A stretch of 64,000 nucleotides of DNA from an uncultured Actinomycetota bacterium (GTDB lineage Bacteria > Actinomycetota > Actinomycetes > CAVPEL01): NCBI GenBank assembly GCA_963703505.1, contig CAVPEL010000010.1, positions 206,214 through 270,213 on the forward strand, given 5' to 3'. Under the pieces are notes generated by a model, which did not search any database, was not told the DNA's origin, and saw only the letters and a program-made list of their open reading frames with translations. Within the stretch, counting starts at the first letter, position 1. Every line of letters begins with the position of its first letter. The position numbers were made by a program, and so were the translations under genes. This document shows positions 55,981 through 56,280 of this stretch, piece after piece.

Positions 55981-56039
55981 GGTGGTCGGTCTCCTTCGGG
56001 GGCGGGCGGATGCGGAGAGGCAGAGCGCGGAAACGCGAA

Positions 56040-56067
56040 AACGACGACGTGTGAACACGTCGTCGTT
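56040..56067 (-). terminator. Intrinsic terminator/attenuator hairpin in the metY leader
   Basis: RNA sense: AACGACGACGUG-UUCA-CACGUCGUCGUU followed by UUCGCGUUUCC. The 12-bp stem is perfect. Its 3' end lies 59 nt upstream of the metY ATG and it starts 52 nt downstream of the upstream-ORF stop. Confidence 0.55.
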
Positions 56068-56119
56068 GCGCGGTTGGTGCGGATGGACGGAGCGAGGCGG
56101 GTTATCCCGCAGGTCGCCG

Positions 56120-56221
56120 TCAGGCCGTACAGGCGCGCATCAGGCCGCAACACATTCGCATGGACGCCATGGGAGCACACATGGTGCTCTCGGCGTTCAT
56201 CGACTGCGGGCTGACGGGCAT
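56120..56221 (-). CDS. Candidate Met/Cys-rich leader peptide (33 aa) of the metY-metX operon
   Basis: I translated it codon by codon as [33 protein letters not shown] followed by TGA. It has 7 ATG and 4 TGY codons in 33. AGGG lies 12-15 nt upstream of the ATG. Confidence 0.5.
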
Positions 56222-56280
56222 GGGCCACACCCTAGCAGCCGAAGCCGGTGCCGTGGACAACCGATTCCGAACTGCCCCTG

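Follow-up and report, generated by a model that had tools for sequence, protein, structure and literature searches.

The metY-metX Operon and Its Leader

The stretch of DNA analyzed here, hereafter the window, spans 64,000 nucleotides (nt) of contig CAVPEL010000010.1 (GenBank assembly GCA_963703505.1) from an uncultured Actinomycetota bacterium, and its minus strand carries a metY-metX operon preceded by a short open reading frame (sORF) rich in Met and Cys codons and by a terminator-like hairpin. All features of the operon and its leader given below lie on this strand. The metX gene (53496–54665), coding for homoserine O-acetyltransferase, is intact (public call P0121, 389 aa) and follows metY (54673–55980), which codes for O-acetylhomoserine sulfhydrylase and contains three +1 frameshifts in this assembly. 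A Shine–Dalgarno (SD) sequence of metY, GAAGGAG, can be read at 55991–55997. The hairpin (56040–56067) begins 52 nt past the stop codon of the sORF and ends 59 nt before the metY ATG, while the sORF itself (56120–56221) consists of 33 codons and a stop, from an ATG at 56221 to a TGA at 56122–56120. The element as a whole is compact, about 240 nt. The original prediction, made from the sequence of this leader, had placed the sORF at these positions, translated it by hand and counted 7 Met and 4 Cys codons, all of which is correct on a minus-strand reading.

In a database of 5.8 billion clusters, the nearest MetX is 74–75% identical by BLASTP and 72% over the full alignment, which assigns the window to an isolated lineage. 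The window's own proteins are found there as singletons only (P0001 and P0121), P0001 being the 161-aa fragment to which the public annotation of metY is limited.

A putative −10 hexamer of the TANNNT type, TAGGGT (56229–56234), stands exactly 7 nt 5' of the sORF ATG and 46 nt past the stop codon (56283–56281) of the preceding gene, which encodes a TfoX_N domain on the same strand. This spacing predicts a transcript whose 5' end falls at or adjacent to the sORF start codon, i.e., a leaderless mRNA, and the first 6–8 nt at the 5' end of the sORF are unpaired in the minimum free energy (MFE) folds of this leader and of the related ones described below. A scan with an E. coli-type consensus detected no promoter in the window leader, as would be expected for the promoters of an actinobacterial host. 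The length of the sORF carries no weight, since its frame is open in the 5' direction as far as 57004 and, at the 70% G+C of the window, about one in two random frames of 35 codons is free of stops.

Met and Cys Codons in the Leader Reading Frame

The 7 Met and 4 Cys codons of the sORF stand among 33 residues, and three of the four Cys codons are the rare UGU, which accounts for 9% of the Cys codons in the genes of the window. All seven ATG triplets fall within 102 nt in a single frame, with none in the other two (7/0/0), and ATG is practically absent from the remaining leader, both in the window and in its relatives. In composition shuffles of the sORF, the observed in-frame counts were never attained (P < 5e-5). 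Relative to the local codon usage of 24 proxy genes of the window, in which Met and Cys represent 1.6% and 1.3% of the codons, respectively, the probability of finding at least 6 internal Met codons among 32 is ~1e-5 and that of finding at least 4 Cys codons is ~8e-4. Moreover, the sORF is the sole site in the 64 kb window, considering both strands and all frames, at which a stop-free frame of 33 codons holds at least 9 Met and Cys codons. A comparison set was drawn from species-representative genomes and comprises 80 listed loci whose MetY N-terminus is 66–80% identical to that of the window; the best run of 20 codons contains 9 Met and Cys codons in the window, and in none of these orthologous loci does it exceed 5.

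Two other Met-dense spots of the window, each attaining 7 in-frame ATGs, were rejected as leaders. The spot at 59003 sits inside the gene of a 257-aa membrane protein, and that at 61554 is antisense to a phosphate-transporter permease gene, whose His codons (CAT) are read as ATG on the opposite strand. The predicted 257-aa membrane protein (58907–59680, plus strand), with its Met-rich N-terminal segment (…HMGVMPGTMGLTLPFFLAIWLLMMGAMML…), is the sole other genuine Met-dense coding stretch in the window.

Conservation of the Leader in Relatives

A homologous leader is present in contigs of the nearest relatives, at the loci L081, L082, L084, L086, L087, L088, and L090. These belong mostly to metagenome-assembled genomes, and their MetX and MetY proteins are about 68–77% identical to those of the window. 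L086 is identical to L089, and L088 and L091 are located on one contig; eight distinct leaders were aligned, representing four diverged versions, namely the window, the L081 group, L087, and L088. An nhmmer profile of the leader matches every carrier and the window and no other of the 93 loci.

In the seven relatives, the sORF has 36 codons and encodes peptides such as VTTVPASRAAVRPMGAMAMMCARMCAGATCGCMRQA (L081), VSTVPAVRAAVRPQGVMAMMCARMCAGATCGCMRQA (L087), and VSLVPARRAVVHPSGESAMMCMRRCAGPACGSMRQP (L088). It starts with GTG, exactly 7 nt after a −10 hexamer (TATCCT, TATTCT, TACGGT, or TAGACT), and the motif TGGAC(A/G) is found 17 nt 5' of this TANNNT hexamer. The ATG triplets are again confined to a single frame (6/0/0, 5/0/0, or 4/0/0), and the reading frame is kept across the indels that separate the aligned leaders. 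Three UGU codons are present per sORF throughout, i.e., three of four Cys codons in most leaders, three of three in L088, and three of five in L090. The relatives' Cys codons number 3–5, are isolated and in part show a C-x3-C-like spacing, and they are outnumbered by Met codons, of which each ORF, that of the window included, contains 4–7. Thus, the short ORF and the Met/Cys bias on which the original prediction was built recur in the leaders of the nearest relatives, together with the −10 spacing and, as described below, a covarying hairpin.

The peptide itself is far more variable. Between L081 and L088, the sORF shows ~14 non-synonymous against 2 synonymous changes; these are not biased toward third positions, and the Met and Cys positions are retained. 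The N-terminal half of the window sORF is essentially unalignable with the relatives, and here too the Met richness and the frame are preserved. A CGA-AUG-UGU core (Arg-Met-Cys) is conserved in the window and its relatives, in frame with the start codon. To judge from these substitutions, the peptide is not under purifying selection, and the retention of Met and Cys codon identity while the rest changes is a pattern that a regulatory leader peptide should show and a functional protein should not.

Searches with the peptides gave little. The 33-aa peptide had no match by phmmer among 1.84 billion representatives, a profile of the relatives' peptides had none in the set of 5.8 billion clusters, and a metagenome scan with the peptide alignment returned three loci, one of them a duplicate. 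The same leader was not found in the 80 listed metY loci from the MetY N-terminus search, either by the nhmmer profile or by a scan for Met/Cys runs. A run reading MICCGAMAAM at L058 is unrelated, with no copy of the leader detected there by nhmmer, and L092, L093, and L094 were likewise discarded as lacking it.

The genes upstream of the leader bear on the origin of the hairpin. The gene 5' of the leader is patatin-like in L081, L082, L084, and L087 and unrelated in L088, its orientation is opposite to that of the leader each time, and leader and hairpin are kept nonetheless; the hairpin is therefore not the terminator of the TfoX gene, whose stop codon lies 214 nt away from it in the window. 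Furthermore, none of the eight leaders contains a TANNNT hexamer in the interval from the hairpin to metY; most likely, then, transcription of metY starts at the sORF promoter and passes through the hairpin. A simple TfoX terminator followed by a separate metY promoter, against which the original prediction had asked to be checked, is accordingly not what the relatives display.

Terminator-Like Hairpin, P2 Domain, and Covariation

The hairpin of the window, ACGACGACGUGU-UCAC-ACACGUCGUCGU, comprises 12–13 bp closed by a UCAC loop and has a predicted stability of about −19 kcal/mol. It is directly followed by UUUUCGCGUUUCC, and the U-rich tail UUCGCGUUUCCG (56028–56039) includes a conserved GUUUCC that is pairable with the metY SD region (GGAGAC). 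This pairing is available in the window, L081, L084, and L090 and weak in the other leaders, and it is only a hint. In the relatives, the hairpin has 10–12 bp, is GC-rich, and carries a U-rich tail; in all leaders, the window included, it is located 20–52 nt past the sORF stop and 34–71 nt before metY. A scan with a strict terminator consensus calls the hairpin of L088 and not that of the window. The hairpin of the original prediction is thus where it had been placed with respect to the stop codon and the metY ATG, and its U-rich tail does not satisfy a strict terminator rule.

The consensus structure was obtained with RNAalifold on the eight distinct leaders and evaluated by explicit counting of pairs. 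In the hairpin, 100% of the alignment cells are paired and 6 pairs are changed on both sides, values attained by none of 500 shuffles, and L090 shows an independent compensatory change from GAAG/CUUC to GCAG/CUGC. A second conserved domain, P2 (56069–56138), is formed in the window by pairing of GCGCG at codons 28–30 of the sORF (56138–56134) with CGCGC (56073–56069), and in the relatives by pairing of GUGUG.CUG with CAG..CACAC. Its 3' strand stands directly 5' of the terminator-like hairpin, and the stop codon and the spacer lie within the domain. In P2, 95% of the cells are paired and two pairs are changed on both sides. Considering P2 and the hairpin together, 98% of the cells are paired, compared with 36–59% when the partners are slid by 1–3 columns, and 8 pairs are changed on both sides, compared with 1.1 in shuffles; the observed values were attained in 0 of 500 shuffles.

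The window leader folds at −101.8 kcal/mol, with a z-score of −4.0 relative to shuffles. The MFE fold includes a long imperfect hairpin within the sORF, P1 (56139–56215; leader nt 7–83), in which most of the Met and Cys codons are found on the 3' strand or in the loop. P1 is also an element of the RNAalifold consensus, and a P1-like hairpin with some compensatory changes is present in the relatives, although the alignment of the window with them is weak in this part.

The alternative folds of the original prediction do exist. The segment CCCGCAGUCG can pair with CGACCUGCGGG at −15.7 kcal/mol with one bulge, at a cost of ~17 kcal/mol relative to the MFE structure, and the local hairpin GCGGG-AUAA-CCCGC (56097–56110) has −7.9 kcal/mol. 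Nevertheless, both lie in an insertion of ~23 nt restricted to the window. The former is not an anti-terminator, because the terminator stays intact when it is formed, and the latter stands outside any conserved mechanism, because every relative is devoid of a counterpart.

SAM Riboswitches at the Same Genomic Position

An Rfam scan of the leader gave no match, either at gathering thresholds in the whole window or at E ≤ 10 in the region 55850–56400, nor did an nhmmer profile of the S-adenosylmethionine (SAM) riboswitch SAM-IV match the window leader, in agreement with the original reading, in which no SAM-IV or S-box signature had been recognized. Rfam likewise found no match in the leaders of L081, L082, and L084. 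The only Rfam matches in the window correspond to an RNase P RNA of class A (33880–34292, minus strand, 268.9 bits) and a tRNA (40020–40092, minus strand).

Among the 80 listed loci, SAM-IV was looked for with Rfam in 20 and with the nhmmer profile in all, and the positives show that the test works: a SAM-IV riboswitch is located directly 5' of metY in 39 of the 80. In addition, L092, a metagenomic contig with the closest MetY fragment, carries a SAM-I riboswitch. The leader of the window therefore occupies the same genomic position, in front of the same regulated operon, as SAM-IV (RF00634) and SAM-I/S-box (RF00162) riboswitches in other loci, and it presumably shares their purpose, the feedback control of homocysteine and methionine synthesis. 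However, it has no match to them in sequence or structure, and the signal here would be the charging of tRNA as read by the ribosome, instead of SAM bound by RNA.

Relation to Known Leader-Peptide Systems

Leader ORFs rich in Cys codons were predicted in 2005 in Mycobacterium, Propionibacterium, and Bifidobacterium, in a study that found no RNA-level elements in the methionine operons of Actinobacteria (Seliverstov et al. 2005, PMC1262725). The polycysteine leaderless sORFs of mycobacteria, including Ms5788A in the 'Cys ribulon', were subsequently demonstrated to be translational attenuators (Canestrari et al. 2020, bioRxiv 10.1101/834739). In Ms5788A, the Cys tract pairs with the SD of the downstream gene within a very stable leader fold, with no reliance on a U-tailed hairpin between the sORF and the SD (10.1101/834739).

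The window leader shares with Ms5788A an unannotated actinobacterial sORF, located apparently at the 5' end of the transcript (here as predicted from the −10 spacing), the enrichment in codons for sulfur amino acids, a place as the first cistron ahead of genes of sulfur metabolism, and a leader fold of great stability. In contrast, the target here is metY-metX, Met codons dominate (4–7 per ORF) and provide the frame-specific signal, Cys codons are scattered with no consecutive run save one pair in the window, and a conserved, U-tailed hairpin separates the sORF from the gene. Seven of the eight leaders also lack the defining pairing between sORF and SD; in them, the duplex between the sORF and the ribosome binding site is no stronger than with shuffled sORFs. 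The exception is L087, where the Met/Cys tract pairs with the RNA immediately 5' of the SD (−35.1 kcal/mol, P = 0.003). SD occlusion of the Ms5788A type was consequently rejected as a general mechanism, since it is significant in this leader only.

With the classical attenuators, such as trpL and hisL, the actinobacterial trp, ilvB, and leuA leaders, and the M. tuberculosis ilvB1 attenuator, composed of an upstream ORF (uORF) and a terminator (PMC13236596), the element has in common an ORF rich in codons for the end product, a hairpin with a U-tract, and the control of biosynthetic genes. Such an ORF is present in the window and kept in 4 lineages, and a hairpin followed by a U-tract separates it from metY, termination at this site being predicted. 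Unlike in the classical systems, the regulatory codons are distributed over P1 and the 5' strand of P2, which abuts the terminator, instead of in a 'segment 1', initiation is probably leaderless, and no mutually exclusive anti-terminator was detected with a test that detects the one of trpL (next section). A specificity for Met, with or without Cys, is also devoid of a described precedent in the literature searched; this search found neither a methionine leader peptide nor a metY uORF, with most subscription journals lying outside its coverage. Thus, the element is attenuator-like, yet neither the anti-terminator of the classical class nor the SD pairing and poly-Cys tract of the mycobacterial one was detected as a general feature of its leaders. 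To our knowledge, no RNA-level control of metY-metX has been reported except SAM riboswitches.

Interpretation and Alternatives

We favor, at somewhat better than even confidence, the interpretation of this element as a leaderless leader-peptide attenuator of metY-metX that responds to Met-tRNA, probably to Cys-tRNA as well, and stands in for the SAM riboswitch of relatives. This interpretation is built on the ORF, with a Met bias confined to its frame, the −10 spacing, the covariation of the hairpin and P2, the lack of any known riboswitch, and the lack of a promoter-like hexamer past the hairpin. Transcription would begin at or next to the ATG or GTG of the sORF, generating a leaderless mRNA, and ribosomes would translate the frame of 33–36 codons, about a third of which are Met or Cys, with Cys encoded mostly by the rare UGU. 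The speed of translation would then report the supply of charged Met-tRNA, and probably of charged Cys-tRNA, while the position of the ribosome would set the folding of the RNA before metY and, with it, transcription (possibly also translation) into metY-metX. With P1 and the 5' strand of P2 taking up the whole ORF, and with P2 adjoining the hairpin, a ribosome on the ORF must, depending on its position, remodel the RNA immediately before the terminator. Such remodeling would change read-through, with the hairpin ending transcription and stalling at Met or Cys codons relieving this termination, by a route that we infer rather than observe. Dual sensing would be physiologically sensible if the homocysteine produced by MetX and MetY feeds methionine and, by reverse transsulfuration, cysteine.

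Several points weigh against this interpretation. Methionine starvation would also limit initiation at the leader ORF, which poses a problem of logic. The Cys (TGY) triplets of the window sORF are distributed among the frames as 4/5/1, i.e., they are not frame-specific, and their GUGUG strings pair in P2, so that RNA structure could explain part of the codon content. Evidence from the frame strongly favors the Met codons and is less strong for Cys, and of the sensing of both amino acids put forward originally, the Met part is consequently the better founded. In addition, the window hairpin fails the strict terminator rule because its U-tail is weak, with too few U, and the support from covariation, albeit good, is not overwhelming, as it comes from few events in only ~4 independent lineages. 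The metY gene of the window is itself interrupted by frameshifts near 55545, 55285, and 54965, none of them at a homopolymer; it is 68–79% identical to the intact MetY of L088 over its full length and may be a very recent pseudogene or, alternatively, reflect assembly errors.

Moreover, a conserved anti-terminator did not emerge from folding simulations. A ribosome footprint of 28 nt was masked codon by codon, the nascent RNA was folded to the end of the 5' arm of the hairpin, and the frequency with which this arm was sequestered was recorded. For E. coli trpL, used for method validation only, this frequency was 0.62 at the Trp codons and 0.04 at the stop codon, a 15-fold difference. In the eight leaders, sequestration of the 5' arm was 0.3–0.6 nearly everywhere and no consistent anti-terminator was observed, with a 3–5-fold drop at the stop codon in two of the eight only (L081 and L087). 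A search for duplexes between either arm of the hairpin and the upstream RNA also revealed no partner recurring across lineages. A trp-type anti-terminator is therefore unsupported by both approaches, the first of which does detect the trpL control, and of the attenuator with alternative folds proposed originally, the leader ORF and the hairpin survive as conserved features. As far as these models go, anti-termination may proceed by a non-canonical or kinetic mechanism.

Part of the RNA evidence would also suit an undescribed riboswitch or protein-binding leader RNA, responding for instance to SAM, methionine, or homocysteine, in which the hairpin would be the expression platform and the ORF would be incidental. 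The unusually good fold (z = −4.0), the retention of P1, P2, and the hairpin with compensatory changes, the conservation within the ORF at the nucleotide and not the peptide level, the use of GUGUG strings from Met–Cys codons in pairing, and the riboswitches that relatives carry at the same position point in this direction. We nevertheless regard it as unlikely, because the ATGs of every lineage fall in one frame, set by the start codon 7 nt past the −10 hexamer, because the window and its relatives can hardly be aligned over the 5' half of the leader and yet share Met richness and frame, whereas a ligand pocket would keep specific unpaired nucleotides, and because no Rfam family matches even at E ≤ 10. 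Slightly less probable still is a translational attenuator of the mycobacterial Ms5788A type, sensing Cys and Met. The predicted leaderless architecture, the very stable leader fold, the strong pairing of the Met/Cys tract just 5' of the SD in L087, and the GUUUCC tail that can pair with GGAGAC in four of the leaders are all consistent with it, yet the sORF:SD pairing resembles that of shuffled sORFs in the other seven leaders, consecutive Cys codons are restricted to the single pair in the window, and the conserved U-tailed hairpin is a feature on which Ms5788A does not rely.

That the sORF encodes a functional small Met/Cys-rich protein, for example a metal- or redox-related one merely co-located with metY, seems improbable. 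The persistence of the ORF position and of its Met and Cys content and the C-x3-C-like spacing in the relatives would fit such a protein, while the poor conservation of the peptide across lineages, its mostly non-synonymous changes, the lack of a homologous predicted protein in 1.84 billion representatives or in the 5.8 billion cluster set, and the tight linkage of the ORF to the hairpin and metY in each case argue against it. We give the least credence, very little indeed, to a chance ORF in GC-rich DNA combined with a hairpin that terminates the TfoX-domain operon and a metY gene with a promoter of its own. Open frames are common at 70% G+C, the frame of the sORF is open to 57004, and the window hairpin does lie downstream of a co-directional gene; however, five of the relatives (L081, L082, L084, L087, and L088) keep leader and hairpin next to a different gene on the opposite strand, 214 nt separate the hairpin from the TfoX stop, no lineage has a TANNNT hexamer between hairpin and metY, and no other site in the window or among the 80 listed orthologous loci matches the Met/Cys density. 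As far as sequence comparison allows, these data largely exclude chance and a TfoX terminator.

Within the preferred reading of a Met-tRNA-sensing attenuator, a more far-reaching version can be formulated, which we hold at a little under an even chance. According to it, the element would be the first ribosome-mediated attenuator responsive to Met, or to both Met and Cys; it would operate with no conventional anti-terminator, by means of a ribosome-controlled P2 domain stacked on the terminator, and would have replaced SAM riboswitches in a few actinobacterial lineages.

Other Short Reading Frames and Riboswitch Copies Upstream of metY

The loci of the comparison set display further elements in the region upstream of metY. 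In Nanopelagicaceae-type loci, two SAM-IV copies are found within 3 kb (81–193 and 2815–2927 in L029; 113–219 and 2823–2936 in L032), one of them 5' of metY and the other before a gene further upstream. In Nocardia, a mini-ORF starting with MCCC lies between SAM-IV and metY, at 2856–2891 in L001 (Nocardia concava) and at ~2888–2923 in L021 (Nocardia sp.), encoding MCCCRSPFASR and MCCCPSPKSR; these loci could represent a tandem of a SAM riboswitch and a poly-Cys leader. Mycobacterial loci show a recurring reading that begins MMVGCSALM, ~300–450 nt 5' of metY and before the SAM-IV element (L016, 2559–2618; L044, 2590–2712; L057, ~2502; L071, 2612–2731; L072, 2495–2644), which possibly stems from a conserved neighboring gene read out of frame or in antisense.

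A second, different short ORF is conserved 5' of metY in Pseudonocardia, in a Mycobacteriales metagenome-assembled genome, in Streptomyces, and in Embleya, all of them devoid of SAM-IV at this locus (L012, ~2867–2941; L002, ~2889–2963; L022, ~2768–2842; L070, ~2716–2790; also L038, L061, and L078). This ORF comprises ~24 codons with the pattern (V/M)x(x)LVxRRHVDYxRVTxxxCxxxx*, is not rich in Met or Cys, and has no Rfam match. Its start in Pseudonocardia-type loci lies exactly 7 nt downstream of TACGGT or TAGGTT. At the amino acid level it is conserved across orders, and a literature search found no description of it; from its sequence, it looks like a conserved regulatory leader peptide, possibly of the arrest type.

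Significance for Methionine Regulation in Actinobacteria

Attenuation by leader peptides is known for Trp, His, Phe, Thr, Leu, Ile/Val and, in mycobacteria, Cys, while methionine genes are usually controlled by SAM riboswitches, T-boxes, and repressors. The concept of a leader that senses Met is an awkward one, in that translation of the leader itself requires methionine for its start. If the interpretation favored here is true, a leaderless working example would show a solution to this problem of Met initiation. Furthermore, a ribosome-sensing leader standing where relatives have SAM-IV or SAM-I, both metabolite-sensing RNAs, would exemplify how the two kinds of sensor can be exchanged in the evolution of a single operon, and the small ORFs of actinobacteria would gain a class missing from current annotation. 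In its more far-reaching version, and taken together with the second conserved metY uORF of Pseudonocardia and Streptomyces, it would make metY a hotspot of peptide-based sensing.

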